Origin: Escherichia phage vB_EcoM_005
Length of the DNA stretch: 64,000 nucleotides
Sequence record: MK295203
Strand: one strand, 5' to 3'
Shown here one piece after another: positions 6,557-54,186 of this stretch (its first letter is position 1; every line of letters starts with the position of its first letter). The translations under genes and the position numbers were made by a program. The notes under the pieces were generated by a model that saw only the letters and a program-made list of their open reading frames with translations, did not search any database and was not told the DNA's origin.

Positions 6557-6557
6557 C

Positions 6558-7139
6558 TCATTCATTTTCATGTTTGTGATAACGTGTTATAGCCGAACGA
6601 GTTGATTCAACACCACAGATAGGGCAAATCATCCTTGGCTGATTAATCTTTTTGCCTTTAGCCGGATGTTCTTTACCAAACATCGGATTACCTTCACCAG
6701 ACATAGCTTTGGCTTGGTCTGGTCGCTTACGTCCTTTTAGAGCTTTAGAATGTTCAGGCCTCTTTTTACCTAACCTACAATCTCTTTGTAGCTGTTTGGC
6801 ATGTTCACTCATTGGAATCCCTTTACGAGACATTCCAAAGAACCCGTCAGGCTGAGCTAATGACATATTTATATAGTTTTTAGATTTAACTACATTATAC
6901 TTTATTTGAAGCTCTTTCTCAGCTATACGAGCTTCTTTATCGGTTTCAAATAAAGATAAAATTCTGGTTTTGAAAAGGTGCGGATTTTCTTTACGTTCTA
7001 GATTCCAAATCTTTTTATATGCTTGGGATAATACAGAACCATTATATCCTTCTTTGAGAATCCTTTCAACGTATGTTGAGCCAATATAACGACGGGGTAG
7101 TTTAGACCCCGTGTATATGGTTAAGTAAGTACAATACAT
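6558..7139 (-). CDS. GIY-YIG homing endonuclease with C-terminal zinc finger
   Basis: TIYTGSKLPRRYIGSTY N-terminal motifs, repeated basic H-x-AK segments, C-terminal CPICG...H; free-standing between genes 20 and 19. Confidence 0.7.
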   Translation of the reverse strand: MYCTYLTIYTGSKLPRRYIGSTYVERILKEGYNGSVLSQAYKKIWNLERKENPHLFKTRILSLFETDKEARIAEKELQIKYNVVKSKNYINMSLAQPDGFFGMSRKGIPMSEHAKQLQRDCRLGKKRPEHSKALKGRKRPDQAKAMSGEGNPMFGKEHPAKGKKINQPRMICPICGVESTRSAITRYHKHENE

Positions 7140-7206: not shown

Positions 7207-7698
7207 TTATTCCCACCAGTCAATAGCAAATGTGCTTTCAAATGTTTCTACCTCGTTATTCGAGTCCCAGTCCATCTGGACTTCACCAACGTTAGTAGGC
7301 CATAAGCCGTAAATTGTAACTTCTTTGGTCACAGTCTTGCCGTCACGATGGAACTGGCGAACTACTGCTTGTTTCTTATATTCTGCAGGTGCTGCACCGG
7401 TAATTTCATTGGTCATACCGTGACAGAGATTCTGCCAATCGACAATTGCTTGACGGGTGTCATGTGCATCATCGTTATAAATGGTAATTGTCCAATCATC
7501 AAACGTACGGTCACCAGCTACGTTAATTTTACGGTTCATGTAGCCAACCGGTACTTTTTCTACAATGCCTGCCGGCATAGGTGCTGCTTTACATTTAAAG
7601 CTAAAGTTTTTACCCAGAAATGGAATTTCCACTTCGAAAAGGTTAGGGCGTGCAAAGTCACCTGACTCGAAGGCCCTAGTGATATCCGTAAGTTCCAT
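7207..7698 (-). CDS. 19: tail tube protein gp19
   Basis: 163 aa; ...ITRAFESGDFARPNLFEVEI...GLWPTNVGE... matches T4 gp19 as recalled. Confidence 0.9.
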   Translation of the reverse strand: MELTDITRAFESGDFARPNLFEVEIPFLGKNFSFKCKAAPMPAGIVEKVPVGYMNRKINVAGDRTFDDWTITIYNDDAHDTRQAIVDWQNLCHGMTNEITGAAPAEYKKQAVVRQFHRDGKTVTKEVTIYGLWPTNVGEVQMDWDSNNEVETFESTFAIDWWE

Positions 7699-7701
7699 AA
7701 G

Positions 7702-8385
7702 TTAGTGTTTCCTATCATATTCTTCAATTAAATGGAATAGCATATCTAAATCTATACTATTTTTAGAATCTTTACTTCGATTCTTTTCCCAAGGAATCAT
7801 TTCTAGATTGCAAATGTGTCCTATTATTTCGGGAGGGACGCCATTTTCAAATCCATATTTGATAGATACCCTATGGTCTAATTGATAAGCTCCTTTAACA
7901 CCACATATCCCGCTTAGATGTCTATTTGGTAGATTATCAACTTCTTCTTTAAAAGTCTTATTAGTAAAAGACCTCACTGAATAATAATATTTATTACGTT
8001 CAGATTTGTTAGGATTCCATCTTCCGTTTTTAGGTCCTGAACAAGCTTCAATCTTTATACCTTTTTTAGACTTAGAAATTTTAGGCCCTTTGGTTTTACG
8101 GATTTTTATGCCTTCATCAGAATTCCAATATTCTTTTCTTGTTTCTGAATAGACTTCCCAACGATGCTCTTTACAGAACTTAGAATTGGTTTCATTAAGT
8201 CGCCCTTTTGTTACAGTATAATAAATGCCACATTTATCACATTTACACGTAACAGCCATTTTTCCAGGACAGTCTTCTAATTTTATTAAATGGGAGCTTC
8301 CACTTTTAACTTGATATCCAAGATTTTTAAAAGCAGAAACATTGCGATTCGTTATAGGTATTTCAAATAGAGTATTAGTAATCAT
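7702..8385 (-). CDS. HNH homing endonuclease (mob-like)
   Basis: C-terminal YQLDHRVSIKYGFENG...HICNLEMIPWEKNRSKD HNH motif, cysteine-rich N-terminus; inserted between genes 19 and 18. Confidence 0.7.
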   Translation of the reverse strand: MITNTLFEIPITNRNVSAFKNLGYQVKSGSSHLIKLEDCPGKMAVTCKCDKCGIYYTVTKGRLNETNSKFCKEHRWEVYSETRKEYWNSDEGIKIRKTKGPKISKSKKGIKIEACSGPKNGRWNPNKSERNKYYYSVRSFTNKTFKEEVDNLPNRHLSGICGVKGAYQLDHRVSIKYGFENGVPPEIIGHICNLEMIPWEKNRSKDSKNSIDLDMLFHLIEEYDRKH

Positions 8386-34729: not shown

Positions 34730-35422
<693 letters not shown>

Positions 35423-37315: not shown

Positions 37316-37389
37316 GGCCCTGTAGCTCAATGGTTAGCAGCAGTCCCCTCATAAGGGAAAGGTTACCGGTTCAAATCCGGTCTGGGTCA
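37316..37389 (+). tRNA. tRNA, anticodon CAU (Ile or Met)
   Basis: Hand-folded cloverleaf: acceptor GGCCCTG/CTGGGTC, anticodon loop CTCATAA, T-arm ACCGG-TTCAAAT-CCGGT; no encoded CCA. Confidence 0.6.
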
Positions 37390-37397
37390 TTAACTAC

Positions 37398-37472
37398 GTC
37401 CCGCTGGTGTAATGGATAGCATACGATCCTTCTAAGTTTGCGGTCCTGGTTCGATCCCAGGGCGGGATACCA
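37398..37472 (+). tRNA. tRNA-Arg (anticodon UCU)
   Basis: Acceptor GTCCCGC/GCGGGAT, D-loop AATGGATA, anticodon loop CTTCTAA, T-arm CCTGG-TTCGATC-CCAGG, discriminator A plus CCA. Confidence 0.75.
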
Positions 37473-45944: not shown

Positions 45945-46177
45945 GCATTGCAATTTATATTAAATCTGAGTCATGTGATTCTTATCTGTATTCCTATGAT
46001 ACCGGAACATCAGAAGAGAAAATTAAAGAAGACTTAGAAAGCGATATGGATATGTTCTGTCCTATTGGTGACTATATGCTTCAAGTGTCTGATAGTGAAA
46101 GTCCATCATCAGAAAATAGACTTCAAATTATTATGCAAGATATTTTTAAACAATCATGGGAACGAGACGATGAGTAA
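45941..46177 (+). CDS. hypothetical acidic protein (78 aa)
   Basis: ATGA overlap with previous gene. Confidence 0.45.
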   Translation: MSIAIYIKSESCDSYLYSYDTGTSEEKIKEDLESDMDMFCPIGDYMLQVSDSESPSSENRLQIIMQDIFKQSWERDDE

Positions 46178-46619
46178 GAAAGCTAAGGAATTATCGGCAG
46201 GTATTTTGTTCATGACCGTTGATAAAGAACTAGTTATGGGTCGTGTAACAGGCTCTCGTAATCCAGAGAATATGCGTCATAAATGGGACATTCCTAAGGG
46301 TCATGTCGAACCAGGCGAAGAGCCTATTCAAGCGGCAATGCGCGAAACCGAAGAAGAGATTGGATTCACAGCATACGATCCTGCGTTCCTGAAAGACCTA
46401 GGTGAGTTCAAATATTCAAGCAATAAGAATCTACATCTGTTCTTATATACAGTGCCTGTGGAACACGAGCAGTTCAAGGATTGCAAATGTACGGCTTACC
46501 ATACGTTCCCTGATGGTCGTACTATTCCTGAATTCGATGCGTTCGCTTTGATTAAACGTCCGCAATGGGAATATGTCATGGGCCCGTCGATGTTTAAGGT
46601 TTTAGATTCGCTCTTTTGA
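46170..46619 (+). CDS. nudE: Nudix hydrolase NudE
   Basis: Nudix box GHVEPGEEPIQAAMRETEEEIGF; directly upstream of e as in T4. Confidence 0.85.
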   Translation: MSKKAKELSAGILFMTVDKELVMGRVTGSRNPENMRHKWDIPKGHVEPGEEPIQAAMRETEEEIGFTAYDPAFLKDLGEFKYSSNKNLHLFLYTVPVEHEQFKDCKCTAYHTFPDGRTIPEFDAFALIKRPQWEYVMGPSMFKVLDSLF

Positions 46620-46649: not shown

Positions 46650-47081
46650 ATGGATATTTTTGATATGTTACGTCAAGACGAAGGTCTTGATTTAAATCTT
46701 TATAAAGACACTGAAGGTTATTGGACTATTGGTATTGGCCAATTGATTACTAAGAACCCTTCTAAAGATGTTGCTCGTGCTGAACTTGATAAGCTTATGG
46801 GTCGAGTTTGTAATGGTCGTATTACTATGGCTGAAGCTGAACAACTCTTTAACCGATCGGTTGAAAATGCTCGTAGAGCTATTCTGCGTAATCCTAAATT
46901 GAAACCTGTTTATGATGTACTGGACGAAGTTCGTCGTTGTGCTTTAATTAACATGGTCTTCCAAATGGGTGAAGCAGGCGTAGCAGGGTTCACTAACTCT
47001 TTACGTATGCTCCAACAGAAACGTTGGAACGATGCGGCAGTTAACCTGGTTTATCGCAGAGAATGTAATTCCTGCATCTAA
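46650..47081 (+). CDS. e: lysozyme (endolysin) e, C-terminally truncated
   Basis: [33 protein letters not shown]... matches T4 lysozyme to ...AAVNL then diverges and stops (143 aa versus 164). Confidence 0.85.
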
Positions 47082-47094
47082 AGAACTTTTGGCG

Positions 47095-47430
47095 ATGTTT
47101 GAATCTGAAGAGTTCACTGAAGAACTGAATGAGAACCTGACCCAGGCCACTCCTCAGGTTATTCGCGTTCGTAACGCTCTGCAGACAGGCATGCAGGCCC
47201 GCGTATCTAAGACTATGAAGCTGGCATTCACCACTTCTAAAAATGAAGACTATGGCGACGGTATTGCAATGAACACTGGACAGTATTATGTCGAGTGGAA
47301 TGGTGAAACCGGTACGGCTAAGATTCGTCAGACACGTGCAGCGGGTGGTAAAATGTTAGACCTTAAACTGAACGTTAAAGAGAAAGACGTCGCGGCTTTG
47401 TTCAAGAATTGGATGAAAACCTACAAATAA
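47095..47430 (+). CDS. hypothetical protein (111 aa) ending in a stray MKTYK leader fragment
   Basis: ORF replaces the 3' end of e; last codons ATGAAAACCTACAAATAA look like the start of an internal-protein gene. Confidence 0.4.
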   Translation: MFESEEFTEELNENLTQATPQVIRVRNALQTGMQARVSKTMKLAFTTSKNEDYGDGIAMNTGQYYVEWNGETGTAKIRQTRAAGGKMLDLKLNVKEKDVAALFKNWMKTYK

Positions 47431-50262: not shown

Positions 50263-50473
50263 ATTGACAATTGAAGGCTCTGATGAAGCTCTGAAGATGT
50301 TTGTTGACTGGTTCCACGAACAGGGCGAACAAGGCTTTTTGGAATGTTGGGATGGCGGACAATGGAATGGTAAAGAAATTGTTTACCCGACTACGTATAT
50401 CTCTGTTCGTGGTGGATATGACGGCCTTCATTTGGTTGAATACGATATTGCATCTGATGAGGAAGTGAAATGA
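50255..50473 (+). CDS. hypothetical acidic protein (72 aa)
   Basis: Translationally coupled small ORF. Confidence 0.5.
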   Translation: MSKLTIEGSDEALKMFVDWFHEQGEQGFLECWDGGQWNGKEIVYPTTYISVRGGYDGLHLVEYDIASDEEVK

Positions 50474-50748
50474 TTGAAGATATTAAGGGTTATAAGCCGC
50501 ATACCGACGATAAAATCAGTAAAGTGAACGCTATCAAAGATGCCGAAGTTCGATTAGGGCTAATCTTTAAAGCCTTGGAAGAAGAATATGTTGAAGCCTT
50601 TACATGCTCGGGTGTTGATAAAATGAGTGATGAAGAATTCAACCTCACCCATGAACGCCTAGCCCAGATTCGTACGGCAATAGAACGCTTGAAAGAAGCA
50701 AGCATGTGGGCGTGTCGTTCCGTTTTCCAACCCGAGGAAAAATACTAA
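50470..50748 (+). CDS. hypothetical protein (92 aa), T4 vs.3-vs.6 position
   Basis: Immediately upstream of regB; no recognisable motif. Confidence 0.5.
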   Translation: MIEDIKGYKPHTDDKISKVNAIKDAEVRLGLIFKALEEEYVEAFTCSGVDKMSDEEFNLTHERLAQIRTAIERLKEASMWACRSVFQPEEKY

Positions 50749-50753
50749 AAGCA

Positions 50754-50796
50754 GTTTACATCTCCTGTAGACGTGATACTATAAACCTATCAACTA
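50754..50796 (+). promoter_or_regulatory. early promoter cassette with SD-sequestering inverted repeat
   Basis: GTTTAC, spacer ATCTCCTGTAG, TGATACTATAAACCTATCAA, then CTACAGGAGAT (perfect 11-bp complement holding the regB SD). Confidence 0.65.
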
Positions 50797-50810
50797 CAGG
50801 AGATTACAAA

Positions 50811-51269
50811 ATGTCAGAAATTAATTCAGAAGTATTCATCCGCCGCAACAAATTACGTCGTCAGTTCGAAACCGAATTCCGTGAACTGAATGCGTCCATC
50901 AAAAAAGCCGCCATTAAGAGCGGAGTCCCAGCCTTCTTTATTAAGTACTCTAATCACTTGTTGGACCGTGCTATCCAACGTGAAATCGACGAAAAATACG
51001 TTTTTGCTTTATTCAAGCAACTCCATAACCATGTTAAAGAAATCCACGAATTCTTAATCCAGGAACCTCTGCCTGATGTAGAATCCGAAATTGTCCCTGG
51101 TAAAGTGTATCGTCCATTGCGTCTCGAAATTACCGATAAAACCTTATGGCTAGGTATGACAGTAGACCGTAAACATCCTGATAAAGGATATTCCCTTAAA
51201 TGCCGTATGGCATTTGTTAACTCTAAACGTTTAGAAGGTAAAACCAGCACGAAAGTAATCTATCTTTAA
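50811..51269 (+). CDS. regB: RegB endoribonuclease
   Basis: MSEINSEVFIRRNKLRRQFETEFRE...YSNHLLDRAIQREIDEKYVF... matches T4 RegB. Confidence 0.85.
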   Translation: MSEINSEVFIRRNKLRRQFETEFRELNASIKKAAIKSGVPAFFIKYSNHLLDRAIQREIDEKYVFALFKQLHNHVKEIHEFLIQEPLPDVESEIVPGKVYRPLRLEITDKTLWLGMTVDRKHPDKGYSLKCRMAFVNSKRLEGKTSTKVIYL

Positions 51270-51281
51270 TAATGAGGTCTC

Positions 51282-51821
51282 ATGAAAAAAGTATTAGCCA
51301 CTTTACTATTGACAGTTAGTATGTCTGCCCATAGCGTAGAGCCTACTTTCAGTAATGAACAACTCGATAATTTACATTATGCGTATGCTTTCGGTGAACA
51401 ATACCAAAAGTCGGGAAAGTTCAAAGAAAACCCTAATCAAAAAGGATTAGGATATATCATGGCCGGATTACTATGGCAGGAATCATCCGCCGGAATTAAT
51501 CAAGGTTTAAATAAAGATAAGCACCATGCTTATGGCATGTTCCAAAATTACTTGCCTACGTTAAGAAGTCGTGTTCAACAGGTAGGTTGGAAGATGTCAG
51601 ACAAAGAAATAATTCGTATGGTCCAAAAACGACAGAACAGTGCCTCTTGGGCCTACATTGAACTGTCTTATTGGATTGATGTTCACAAAGGTGACCTGAG
51701 AAAAGCGATTGCTTCTTATAATGCGGGCTGGAATGTCAAAGCAGGCAGTAAATATGCTTCTGAAGTTCTAGAAAAGGCCAATTACCTAAAATCTAAAAAG
51801 ATGTTTGAGGCGGTATATTAA
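51282..51821 (+). CDS. secreted SLT-domain lytic transglycosylase
   Basis: Signal peptide MKKVLATLLLTVSMSAHS; ...WQESS...GMFQ...SYNAG... SLT motifs. Confidence 0.65.
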   Translation: MKKVLATLLLTVSMSAHSVEPTFSNEQLDNLHYAYAFGEQYQKSGKFKENPNQKGLGYIMAGLLWQESSAGINQGLNKDKHHAYGMFQNYLPTLRSRVQQVGWKMSDKEIIRMVQKRQNSASWAYIELSYWIDVHKGDLRKAIASYNAGWNVKAGSKYASEVLEKANYLKSKKMFEAVY

Positions 51822-52079
51822 ATGATTAAGCAGATGACTATAGCGCTTATGTTGATCGCTCCGGGAGTATTAGCGTCACAAGTTGATGATAGCAATAATT
51901 CAATTGTCGAGTATGCTACCCGTACAGTCCGAATGAAAGAGAAAACTCTTTCTAAAAGATACGAGCAACGTCTAAACGTTACTGAATGTATTCCATCTGA
52001 TAAAAAGTACAAAGAAATGTGCGCGTCTATGGTAGACAGACTCGTTGATTCTTACAATCGAGGATTAAACTCTAAATGA
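51822..52079 (+). CDS. small secreted protein (85 aa)
   Basis: Signal-peptide-like N-terminus MIKQMTIALMLIAPGVLAS. Confidence 0.5.
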   Translation: MIKQMTIALMLIAPGVLASQVDDSNNSIVEYATRTVRMKEKTLSKRYEQRLNVTECIPSDKKYKEMCASMVDRLVDSYNRGLNSK

Positions 52080-52543
52080 TTATCGATTATATTAAGGGCG
52101 ATATCGTCGCCCTGTTTCTTCAAGGTAATAATGTTGCACACGGGTGCAACTGTTTCCACACAATGGGTTCAGGTGTAGCCGGACAATTGGCTAAGGCTTA
52201 TCCACCTATTCTCTCTATCGATAAAACCACTTATTTAGGCAATTTGGAAAAACTTGGCACGTTTACTCAAGCCACAGGTAATAATGGCCAAATTTGCTAT
52301 AATTTATACACCCAATACGAACCAGGTCCTAATCTTGATTACGGTGCTTTAGTAAACTGTATGATAGAATTAAACCGTACCGCAAAGGGTCTTTTGTTTA
52401 AACCAAGAATTTATATTCCTCGCATCGGTTGTGGTATTGCTGGCGGTGATTGGGACAAGGTTTATCAATTGATTAATTTGTTTACTCCTGATATTAATTT
52501 AGTGGTGGTAGATTATGAAAGCCCATTACCCGCATCCGTTTGA
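52076..52543 (+). CDS. macro-domain protein (ADP-ribose binding / hydrolase-like)
   Basis: GDIVALFLQGNNVAHGCNCFHTMGSGVAGQLAKAY and RIYIPRIGCGIAGGDW resemble macro-domain motifs. Confidence 0.65.
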   Translation: MIIDYIKGDIVALFLQGNNVAHGCNCFHTMGSGVAGQLAKAYPPILSIDKTTYLGNLEKLGTFTQATGNNGQICYNLYTQYEPGPNLDYGALVNCMIELNRTAKGLLFKPRIYIPRIGCGIAGGDWDKVYQLINLFTPDINLVVVDYESPLPASV

Positions 52544-52727
52544 CCCTAAAAACAAAGCGGAAATTATTCGACGCTGGACCGAAACCCGAGTAACTAAATG
52601 CCCTATAAAAAGTCAACACAACACCGATAAATGGTATATCGGTGAATACGTTGAATATACTTTTATAGATAAAAATAAACGTAAACAGCATGTAGAAGAA
52701 TATTGCTTAAAGGTGCAATGGTTATGA
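52515..52727 (+). CDS. hypothetical protein (70 aa)
   Basis: Overlaps 3' end of macro-domain gene in another frame. Confidence 0.4.
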   Translation: MKAHYPHPFDPKNKAEIIRRWTETRVTKCPIKSQHNTDKWYIGEYVEYTFIDKNKRKQHVEEYCLKVQWL

Positions 52728-52909
52728 GTCTGAGTAAAGAACAGAAAGATAAATTGTTTGAGCTTATCCACGAGCTTTTGGATGAGCATGCAGAAGCAAA
52801 CGCTTTTTACGATGAATATGGCCCTATAGATGCCGAACACCAGGAAGAATTCGCCAGTCGGTTTGATGAGAAAGAAAACGAATTAATTGCTTATGTAAAT
52901 AGTCTTTAA
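52724..52909 (+). CDS. hypothetical acidic protein (61 aa)
   Basis: ATGA overlap; track start 52703 is TTG. Confidence 0.45.
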   Translation: MSLSKEQKDKLFELIHELLDEHAEANAFYDEYGPIDAEHQEEFASRFDEKENELIAYVNSL

Positions 52910-52918
52910 GAAGGTAAT

Positions 52919-53491
52919 ATGGCCCAACTTTATTTTCACTACGCAGCAATGAATTCCGGGAAGACCGCTTCATTGCTAACAGCCGCTCATAACTACAAAG
53001 AACGTGGTATGGGCGTACTCCTTTTAAAGCCTGCGATAGACAATAGAGAATCAAGCCATAGCATTTCGTCTCGTATAGGGATTAGCCAAGAAGCTAATGC
53101 AGTGACTCCGGATATGGACCTATACGAGTTCTATCGTTGGGCTGAATCTCAAAAAGATATCCACTGTGTGTTTGTGGATGAAGCGCAGTTCTTAGAACCT
53201 GTACAGATAAAACAACTGGCAAAGATAGTAGACAATTATAATGTTCCAGTTATGTGCTATGGACTAAGAACTGATTTTCAGGGTAAACTGTTTCCTGGCT
53301 CTGCTGAATTACTCGCTACAGCAGATAAACTCGTTGAGTACAAAGGTGTGTGCCATTGCGGCCGTAAAGCTACTATGACGGCTCGTATCCAAGATGGTAT
53401 CGCAATTAAGGACGGAGCCCAAGTTTCTATAGGTGGCAACGATTCTTACGTGTCATTGTGCAGGAAGCACTGGATAGAAATAACGAGTTGA
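52919..53491 (+). CDS. tk: thymidine kinase
   Basis: MAQLYFHYAAMNSGKTASLLTAAHNYKERGM...VFVDEAQFL...CHCGRKATMTAR... matches T4 Tk. Confidence 0.9.
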   Translation: MAQLYFHYAAMNSGKTASLLTAAHNYKERGMGVLLLKPAIDNRESSHSISSRIGISQEANAVTPDMDLYEFYRWAESQKDIHCVFVDEAQFLEPVQIKQLAKIVDNYNVPVMCYGLRTDFQGKLFPGSAELLATADKLVEYKGVCHCGRKATMTARIQDGIAIKDGAQVSIGGNDSYVSLCRKHWIEITS

Positions 53492-53574
53492 GGGTACTAT
53501 GGACCTAAATTCAAAGATTTTAATTCTAGCGTTCGCTGTGGCTATTTCTTATATTGTTCTTTTGCCTATCATGG

Positions 53575-53760
53575 ATGGTGTGGCTTACTAAAAGAGAGAT
53601 AGAGGTTGTAGCAGCGACGTATAATGCTAATAATAAAGAGTGTCCTAATAAAAATGGGATGGATTTAATTAAAGCGCATTATATGCTTTCCATTACCTCG
53701 CCTATACAGAGGAATTGGGTTGAATATAATTTTAACGACGTGTTCTATTCTTATTTGTAG
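53575..53760 (+). CDS. hypothetical small protein (61 aa)
   Basis: ATG within ORF 53554..53760 (TTG start in track); overlaps a 30-codon hydrophobic ORF at 53499..53591. Confidence 0.3.
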   Translation: MVWLTKREIEVVAATYNANNKECPNKNGMDLIKAHYMLSITSPIQRNWVEYNFNDVFYSYL

Positions 53761-53774
53761 TAAGCTTAAAAAGC

Positions 53775-53782
53775 TATAAATA
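53775..53782 (+). promoter_or_regulatory. late promoter TATAAATA
   Basis: TATAAATA about 90 nt upstream of the rI-like gene. Confidence 0.4.
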
Positions 53783-53871
53783 ATAATACTAACCGTAGAG
53801 CTTTAGCTTTTGGTAATCGCTATCGGTTAAGGCCGAAAGGCAAATAGTATAAAACAACAAAGGACTTTTGT

Positions 53872-54186
53872 ATGGATATTTTCCGTACAGCGGCTTGTAT
53901 CCTTATGGCGGGATGTTTAAGCCCTACAGTTTCACTAGCAAATGATACCAATGATAAATTGATGGATGCGTTTGCTAGTAGTGCGATGCCTGTTTATGCG
54001 CAAATGAGTAGACCTAGCGTAAAGGCCTCCGAAGACTATTGGGCCTATGTTACGGCTTCCTGGAAGATTTCAAGTTGTCGGACTATAGAAGCGTGCTCAA
54101 TTGAAGGTCGTGCCATCGGAGAGCGTTATGCAAAACTATTCAGCCCATTTAGAAACCAAAAGCTATGCAAGACACAAAGCGTATGA
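53872..54186 (+). CDS. rI: RI-like lysis-inhibition regulator candidate (secreted / lipoprotein)
   Basis: Signal peptide with lipobox-like LMAGC; C-terminal ...SSCRTIEACSIEGRAIGERYAKL resembles T4 RI as recalled; located after tk. Confidence 0.45.
   Translation: MDIFRTAACILMAGCLSPTVSLANDTNDKLMDAFASSAMPVYAQMSRPSVKASEDYWAYVTASWKISSCRTIEACSIEGRAIGERYAKLFSPFRNQKLCKTQSV

Follow-up and report, generated by a model that had tools for sequence, protein, structure and literature searches.

A predicted glutamine-type macrodomain encoded beside the thymidine kinase gene of Escherichia phage vB_EcoM_005, the orthologue of T4 tk.4 (adfM)

What is the role of the small macrodomain gene that lies beside the thymidine kinase gene (tk) of Escherichia phage vB_EcoM_005? 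The gene is an ATG-to-TGA open reading frame (ORF) of 155 amino acids plus stop at positions 52076-52543 (+ strand) of a 64,000-nucleotide stretch of sequence record MK295203, and this whole stretch is called the window here. A sequence-only reading of the window had recognized a macrodomain from its Gly-rich loop and second loop motifs, and had proposed that the protein counters host defences that use either ADP-ribosylation or signals derived from nicotinamide adenine dinucleotide (NAD+). The gene is the Dhakavirus orthologue of T4 tk.4, also named adfM. Its product is probably an early macrodomain that removes from phage DNA the ADP-ribose attached by the bacterial toxin DarT2, and it would do so with a glutamine-type active site.

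Macro fold and relationship to T4 tk.4

The protein is a macrodomain by both profile and predicted structure. The Pfam Macro profile (PF01661) matches it over positions 2-117 of its 118 with a score of 32.7 bits, where the gathering score is 22 (E=8e-8), and PHROG 335, which carries the label phosphatase, matches it at E=7e-67. An AlphaFold2 model was built on an alignment of 58 phage and metagenome homologues from which the T4 sequence was left out. It has the three-layer alpha/beta/alpha macro fold, with a mean pLDDT (predicted local distance difference test) of 94.6 and a pTM (predicted template modelling score) of 0.89, and disorder (pLDDT < 50) is limited to residues 152-155. The nearest solved structures found by Foldseek are all macrodomains, including TARG1 (E=2.8e-10) and Poa1p (E=6.8e-10), with a template modelling score of about 0.76. 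The macrodomain call is thus borne out by profile and fold alike. A search against macrodomain profiles was one of the checks that the sequence-only reading had proposed, and the fold was found by both of the routes by which its absence could have shown, profile search and structure prediction.

Gene order and full-length identity indicate that the gene is the orthologue of T4 tk.4. The order regB - vs.1 - vs - tk.4 - tk.3 - tk.2 - tk is identical in T4, in JS98 (the type species of the genus Dhakavirus), and in the window. In T4, the place between vs and tk.3 is taken by tk.4 (NP_049723), recorded as 'phosphatase; contains A1pp phosphatase motif', and its JS98 counterpart is annotated as tk.4, 'phosphatase; A1pp motif'. 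The window protein aligns with T4 Tk.4 over 155 of 155 residues at 53% identity (E=1e-62). It is 77% identical to JS98 Tk.4 and 99.4% identical to ORF111 of Escherichia phage C6 (Dhakavirus, Tevenvirinae), which is labelled 'hypothetical protein'. The T4 and window proteins have the same length of 155 amino acids, the same position between vs and tk.3, and all of the family-invariant residues, and they share H22, N25, the NLYTQ motif, and the GxGxAGGxW loop. They differ in 47% of their residues, in a hairpin within codons 43-72 that is 3-4 residues shorter in the window protein, and in a C-terminal tail that overlaps tk.3 by 29 nucleotides in the window and by 4 in T4. The 20-kilobase stretch around the macrodomain gene is about 95% identical to JS98-like phages. 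Relatives of the protein in 2,742 phage records belong mostly to large virulent myoviruses of enterobacteria, Pseudomonas, Vibrio, Acinetobacter, and Aeromonas.

The gene itself is already known, as tk.4 has been annotated for years in T4-like genomes and a near-identical copy is in GenBank (phage C6). The anti-DarTG2 role of the T4 orthologue was assigned in 2025. In a preprint of November 2025, HIDEN-SEQ was used with a saturated T4 transposon library on E. coli expressing DarTG2, and tk.4 was the single significant hit on this host (bioRxiv 10.1101/2025.11.20.689424). A clean deletion of tk.4 made T4 sensitive to DarTG2, and the gene was named adfM, for anti-DarT factor, macrodomain (bioRxiv 10.1101/2025.11.20.689424). 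This phenotype belongs to the T4 allele alone, while the window allele is known from its sequence. Orthology with T4 tk.4 is therefore the one line of evidence that points to counter-defence against ADP-ribosylation for the window protein, and it gives the first proposal of the earlier reading indirect but good support.

One segment of the gene appears to have been replaced like a cassette. In the nucleotide alignment to JS98, identity is 88% over codons 1-42 and 90% over codons 73-155, but it falls to 44%, with a 12-nucleotide indel in addition, over codons 43-72 (52202-52291, + strand). The neighbours stay close, at 100% for the 3' end of vs.1, 95% for vs, and 97% for tk.3. At the protein level Tk, Tk.3, Vs.1, and RegB are 97-100% identical to their JS98 counterparts, compared with the 77% of Tk.4. 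It is this local drop, with flanks and neighbours remaining high, that suggests replacement. The segment lies on the surface of the model and consists of helix 44-49 and the hairpin that follows, and D49, L60, and G61 are the only residues conserved inside it. Such a replacement fits conflict-driven diversification of the gene. T4-like phages carry at least two Tk.4 allele types: identity to the window protein is about 75% for the proteins of Tequatrovirus-type phages such as phage 132, fPS-2, and phiD1, and 53% for that of T4 itself.

The active site and its closest counterparts

The residue pattern suggests that the active site is of the H22/N25/Q80 type found in SCO6735 of Streptomyces coelicolor, and not of the lysine type found in DarG and TARG1. 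Conservation was followed in the 58 phage and metagenome homologues and in bacterial relatives, for which residues and gene neighbourhoods were counted in 80 loci fetched out of at least 496. The first ADP-ribose-binding loop is Gly-rich, occupies codons 22-35 (52139-52180, + strand), and reads H22-G-C-N25...M-G-S-G33-V-A35. Its residues H22, G23, N25, G33, and A35 are invariant in the 58 homologues and in 80 of the 80 bacterial relatives. The second, diphosphate-binding loop is P-R-I-G-C-G-I-A-G-G-D-W at codons 115-126 (52418-52453, + strand). P115, G118, G120, and W126 are invariant in the 58 homologues and A122, G123, and G124 reach a conservation of 90% or more there, while all seven are present in every one of the 80 bacterial relatives. 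Both of the loop motifs noticed earlier are therefore present and conserved, and the cores M30-G-S-G33 and G118-C-G120-I-A-G-G124 show little or no variation. The third conserved motif, N-L-Y-T-Q, lies at codons 76-80 (52301-52315, + strand). N76, Y78, T79, and Q80 are invariant in the 58 homologues, and N76, Y78, and Q80 are kept in all 80 bacterial relatives. The family of standalone Gln-type macrodomains to which these proteins would belong has the signature HGCNC ... D ... NxYTQ ... GxGxAGGDW.

The register of the active site comes from a HMMER profile alignment to TARG1 and BT1257 and from a joint MAFFT alignment with five reference macrodomains. N76-L-Y-T79-Q80 is aligned to N-F-P-T-K in both DarG structures, M-F-P-T-K in gp104 of phage PhiKZ, Y-L-I-T-K in TARG1, and N-M-I-G-Q in BT1257 and SCO6735. 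Q80 thus occupies the position of the catalytic lysine (K84 in TARG1, K80 in DarG, K78 in PhiKZ gp104), where SCO6735 has Gln85, and A122 is aligned to the catalytic D125 of TARG1. Residues H24, V25, N27, and Q85 of SCO6735 correspond to H22, G23, N25, and Q80 of the window protein (numbering checked on the 5E3B alignment). Comparison of the family profile with PhiKZ gp104 by hhalign gives homology at a probability of 96%. The hhalign register places the gp104 lysine one column off, on Y81, and it was rejected because HMMER and MAFFT both pair N-L-Y-T-Q with N-F-P-T-K.

The window protein resembles SCO6735 in its catalytic residues but differs from it elsewhere. SCO6735 and BT1257 of Bacteroides are Gln-type ALC1-like macrodomains (PDB 5E3B, 2FG1/2AFC) with the same His/Asn/Gln set, and BT1257 is 25-29% identical to the window protein. 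These two have an extended 'mobile loop' that exceeds that of DarG and TARG1 by about 5 residues. The phage protein lacks the extension and has 6 residues fewer than BT1257 in this loop; in bacterial relatives of the phage family the region is 3-4 residues longer. The phage family also has invariants of its own in D49, Y78, and T79 (the last a Gly in SCO6735 and BT1257), and K34 and K89 of SCO6735 are without equivalent. The window protein probably belongs to a sister group that works like SCO6735, and not to the SCO6735/BT1257 subclass itself. Human TARG1 (OARD1/C6orf130) shares with it the YxKGD start, the His of the first loop, and the PRIGCG loop, but the catalytic dyad K84/D125 of TARG1 is replaced by Q80/A122. 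Yeast Poa1p, a soluble ADP-ribose-1''-phosphate phosphatase, is larger, with about 170 residues resolved in crystal structures.

DarG and its phage-encoded relative are more distant. The DarG proteins of M. tuberculosis and T. aquaticus (PDB 5M3I, 5M31) have K80 in NFPTK, where the window protein has the Gln of NLYTQ. The NCBIfam DarG model NF048014 scores the window protein at 20.3 bits, against a cut-off of 250 and a score of 138 for PhiKZ gp104. On the PADLOC DarG model the window protein reaches 24 bits, covering positions 3-142 of 329, and PhiKZ gp104 reaches 133; T4 Tk.4 scores 30-36 bits on the DarG models. The C-terminal DarT-binding domain of DarG is without counterpart in the 155-residue protein, and no DarT2 homologue, second macrodomain gene, or NADAR gene was found in the 64-kilobase window. 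The low model scores and the absence of the lysine, of the DarT-binding C-terminus, and of a darT neighbour all argue that the window protein is not a DarG antitoxin. PhiKZ gp104 is likewise a standalone phage macrodomain that counters DarTG2, and it too has been named AdfM. It differs in matching M. tuberculosis DarG at E=9e-25 and in retaining the lysine of FPTK, and it is 20% identical to the window protein (E=0.004). The name AdfM covers two different macrodomain subfamilies, the T4 type and PhiKZ gp104, which should not be pooled as one family. The mildly new result of this analysis is that AdfM of the T4 type is a macrodomain of the Gln type, is not a DarG, and is distinct from the AdfM of PhiKZ.

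The bacterial relatives bear on where the family came from. They were found at 33-43% identity in many phyla, in a scan of one genome per species. In the 80 loci most of them stand alone as ORFs of about 150 amino acids, and every invariant residue is kept. No conserved partner gene was seen in these loci, the largest cluster of neighbours being present in 6 of the 80. DarT2 was found within 4 kilobases at none of them (a single P. aeruginosa DarT2 sequence as the phmmer query, matches accepted to E=10; a search of limited sensitivity). Genes for NAD salvage or NADAR proteins are neighbours at 11 of the 80 loci, while 69 have no NAD-related neighbour. Example operons have the order NAPRTase - NADAR - macro - NAD synthase, or contain NAMPT with an NrtR-type Nudix regulator (Pfam). 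NAD-salvage examples are found at locus L039 (2361-5258) and at L079, L010, L017, and L067. These neighbours hint that some members of the family, at least, have small molecules as substrates. The bacterial pair of NADAR and macrodomain genes mirrors the pair of AdfN and AdfM in T4.

An origin of the family as orphaned DarG antitoxins was considered and rejected, given the low DarG scores, the missing lysine, and the absence of DarT beside the 80 bacterial relatives in the single-sequence search. It is possible, as a tentative proposal, that the T4-type and PhiKZ proteins named AdfM were recruited independently. PhiKZ gp104 would then be a captured DarG-type protein, and Tk.4 would derive from the widespread Gln-type standalone family, as a housekeeping-type hydrolase with water-mediated chemistry. 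If this is true, Tk.4 is not an 'orphan antitoxin', and it might act on a broader range of substrates (thymidine in DNA, uracil in RNA, soluble ADP-ribose derivatives). In that case, evolution in an arms race might be concentrated in the variable segment at codons 43-72.

Proposed action against DarT2 and alternative explanations

The proposed mechanism begins with the early production of a single-domain, 155-residue macrodomain from the regB-vs-tk transcription block. Infection would release the toxin DarT2, which would use NAD+ to place ADP-ribose on thymidine of single-stranded phage DNA and so block replication. The two glycine-rich loops of the phage macrodomain would bind the ADP-ribose between them, and the macrodomain would hydrolyse the bond that joins ribose to thymine. 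Normal DNA would be restored, and the phage would thereby escape DarTG2. In the active site the Gln would position the substrate while water does the chemistry, as proposed for SCO6735.

Several findings from related proteins are consistent with this mechanism. DarT2 is a thymidine ADP-ribosyltransferase that acts on single-stranded DNA and blocks phage replication (PMC11825919, PMC13309987). PhiKZ gp104, from a jumbo phage, removes DarT2-made ADP-ribose from DNA in vitro and rescues DarT2 toxicity (PMC13309987). SCO6735 cleaves thymidine-linked ADP-ribose on DNA faster than DarG or TARG1 does, and it also rescues DarT toxicity (PMC9411070). Mutagenesis of its residues H24, N27, and Q85 has been reported, with Q85A/E abolishing activity, and a water-mediated mechanism has been proposed in which the Gln positions the substrate (PMC9411070). 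Since the residue set of the window protein matches that of SCO6735, hydrolysis of DarT2-modified DNA by a Gln-type site is the most likely activity. By analogy, the window allele would act as T4 Tk.4 and SCO6735 do, by catalysis and on DNA. The guanine-specific system DarTG1 is countered in T4 by a separate NADAR enzyme, AdfN, the product of gene 30.3 (PMC11825919). A JACS paper of 2026 on the specificity of ADP-ribosyl-DNA hydrolases did not have phage enzymes among those tested.

Other findings weigh against removal of ADP-ribose from DNA by the window protein. The evidence for T4 tk.4 is genetic, and enzymatic removal of ADP-ribose from DNA 'seems likely' according to the preprint (10.1101/2025.11.20.689424). 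The window allele is 53% identical to the T4 protein that was tested experimentally, and it has the replaced segment at codons 43-72. It scores poorly on the DarG models (24 bits for PADLOC, 20 bits for NCBIfam with its cut-off of 250) and has no DarG catalytic lysine. BT1257 and SCO6735 have 6 more residues in the loop that follows NLYTQ, so the mechanism of SCO6735 may not apply in every detail. Catalytically dead SCO6735 inhibits DarT by binding (PMC9411070), so catalysis is possibly not the sole route to protection. Finally, the bacterial relatives do not adjoin DarT, and 11 of the 80 have NAD-salvage or NADAR neighbours.

These neighbours are compatible with the main alternative explanation, in which the protein is chiefly an ADP-ribose-1''-phosphate phosphatase or an O-acetyl-ADP-ribose deacetylase that recycles soluble ADP-ribose derivatives for NAD+ economy and does not repair DNA. 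The legacy labels of 'phosphatase, A1pp motif' in the T4 and JS98 records and in PHROG 335 agree with such an enzyme, as does the occurrence of NAPRTase/NAMPT, NAD synthase, NrtR-Nudix, or NADAR genes at those 11 loci. However, the label comes from a motif and not from an assay, and the other 69 bacterial loci lack any such neighbour. Sensitivity to DarTG2 is the sole known phenotype of the orthologue, which was the sole hit in that screen, and the family has the His/Asn/Gln set of a proven DNA thymidine-ADP-ribose hydrolase. A small-molecule enzyme is therefore unlikely as the full explanation, although its activities and DNA repair are not mutually exclusive. Degradation of NAD-derived immune signals, such as Thoeris-type cyclic ADP-ribose isomers or similar molecules, was the second proposal of the sequence-only reading, and it is hardly credible. 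Neither the sequence and its context, nor the relatives, nor the literature on the family lends it support, and the published phenotype of the orthologue is specific to DarTG2.

The protein might also protect without catalysis, by binding or blocking DarT2 or by shielding ADP-ribosylated DNA, as the small phage inhibitors AdfA and AdfB do and DarG does in part. Dead SCO6735 (Q85A) is a stronger inhibitor of DarT in vitro than dead DarG or TARG1 (PMC9411070), AdfA and AdfB appear to work through interaction with the toxin (PMC11825919), and the variable cassette at codons 43-72 could be an interaction surface that evolves with its target. On the other hand, the ADP-ribose-binding and catalytic residues are strictly invariant in both phage and bacterial members. 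This is what selection for enzyme activity predicts, and it makes purely non-catalytic protection very improbable, as do the missing DarT-binding domain of DarG and the lack of a DarT partner beside the 80 bacterial relatives. Another explanation is that the main substrate is ADP-ribosylated protein or RNA, including phage marks of the Alt/ModA/ModB type, the products of host ADP-ribosyltransferase defences, or uracil in RNA. T4-like phages encode several ADP-ribosyltransferases, which favours a substrate of this kind. TARG1 and SCO6735 also strip Glu/Asp-linked ADP-ribose from proteins (PMC9411070). TARG1, DarG, and SCO6735 are all cited repeatedly in a 2026 paper about reversible uracil ADP-ribosylation in RNA (PMC13036486). 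Against this, no phenotype ties tk.4 to de-ADP-ribosylation of protein or RNA. The ADP-ribosyltransferases of T4 modify arginine, and cleavage of arginine-linked ADP-ribose by macrodomains is not known. The phenotype seen with DarTG2 is specific, and published descriptions of DarT2 are of a transferase for thymidine in single-stranded DNA (PMC11825919, PMC13309987). A main role on protein or RNA is thus very improbable.

The analysis has some practical consequences. The labels 'hypothetical protein' and 'phosphatase' in Dhakavirus records could be upgraded to 'AdfM-like anti-DarTG2 macrodomain (predicted)'. The Gln in place of the DarG lysine points to Q80, N25, and H22 as the residues to mutate. 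In phage therapy, a phage with this gene would be predicted to resist E. coli strains that carry DarTG2, provided that the orthology extends to function.

Neighbouring genes and other features of the window

The genes around the macrodomain gene are all on the + strand and are tightly packed or overlapping, and those of the block from regB to tk are presumably co-transcribed. The conserved block starts with the orthologue of the endoribonuclease gene regB (50811-51269), whose product is 98.7% identical to JS98 RegB. It is followed by vs.1 (51282-51821; PHROG 600, E=1.9e-67; 98.9% identical to JS98 Vs.1) and by vs, the valyl-tRNA synthetase modifier gene (51822-52079; 85 amino acids; PHROG 38498, E=5e-28). 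The ATG of the macrodomain gene shares the sequence ATGA (52076-52079) with the stop codon of vs, so translational coupling of the two genes is probable. A Shine-Dalgarno-like GAGGA, read from the sequence, lies at 52060-52064, 11 nucleotides 5' of this ATG. Downstream, the macrodomain gene overlaps tk.3 in a different frame by 29 nucleotides (52515-52543). The overlap has the same length in JS98, and its codons encode the C-terminal tail of the macrodomain protein. The tk.3 gene (52515-52727; Pfam DUF7202, E=2.5e-37) encodes a product 100% identical to JS98 Tk.3. Next are tk.2 (about 52718-52909, with the start adopted from the phage C6 annotation; Pfam DUF7438, E=2e-18; 82% identical to JS98 Tk.2) and tk, encoding thymidine kinase (52919-53491; Pfam TK, E=6.8e-57; 97.4% identical to JS98 Tk). 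A promoter and terminator scan of 50400-54000 was uninformative: shuffled sequence gave more sigma-70-like sites, and no terminator between genes was convincing.

Small differences from JS98 are found within the block. An extra gene of 213 nucleotides, orf102, separates tk.3 from tk.2 in JS98. Both the window (at about 52727) and C6 lack this gene, as seen from a gap of 203 nucleotides in the alignment and the lack of a tblastn match. In vs, 99 nucleotides (33 codons, in frame) present in JS98 and C6 are missing from the window, with the junction near 51928. Vs is accordingly 85 amino acids long instead of 118, and a C-H-P-S-N-T-E-C stretch is within the lost part. In minimal medium, T4 has been reported to depend on vs more than on any other gene (10.1101/2025.11.20.689424).

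Two other genes of the window are related to nucleotide signals or ADP-ribose. The orthologue of T4 57B (Acb1) is at 34967-35419, and its product is 99.3% identical to JS98 57B, which is annotated as 'RNA ligase'. Acb1 is a known anti-CBASS cyclic-nucleotide phosphodiesterase (10.1101/2025.11.20.689424), and the window therefore contains a second known counter-defence gene. An orthologue of the Nudix hydrolase NudE is at 46170-46616 (98% identical to JS98 NudE). ADP-ribose has been reported among the substrates of T4 NudE, and it is a speculative idea that NudE could dispose of ADP-ribose freed by the macrodomain.

Further differences occur outside the block. The lysozyme gene e (46650-47081) encodes 143 amino acids instead of 162. 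The product matches JS98 lysozyme to residue 137 and continues in unrelated sequence, and the normal C-terminal 25 residues were not found in any frame just downstream. An ORF of 132 amino acids (47032-47430) overlaps the end of e. This end could be a recombination junction, or the gene could encode a truncated, possibly impaired endolysin. At 37316-37472 two tRNA genes were found, Met-CAT and Arg-TCT. The equivalent region of JS98 has three (Arg, Asn, and Met), and tRNA-Asn appears to be missing from the window. In the record of phage C6 (MW679410; locus 6557-6793, 7495-8055), the labels 'valyl-tRNA synthetase modifier' and 'thymidine kinase' each occur a second time, on ORF104 and ORF100, which lie downstream of the real tk. 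ORF100 is 561 nucleotides long, the same length as mobD.1 of JS98, and these second labels seem to be mistakes in the public annotation.

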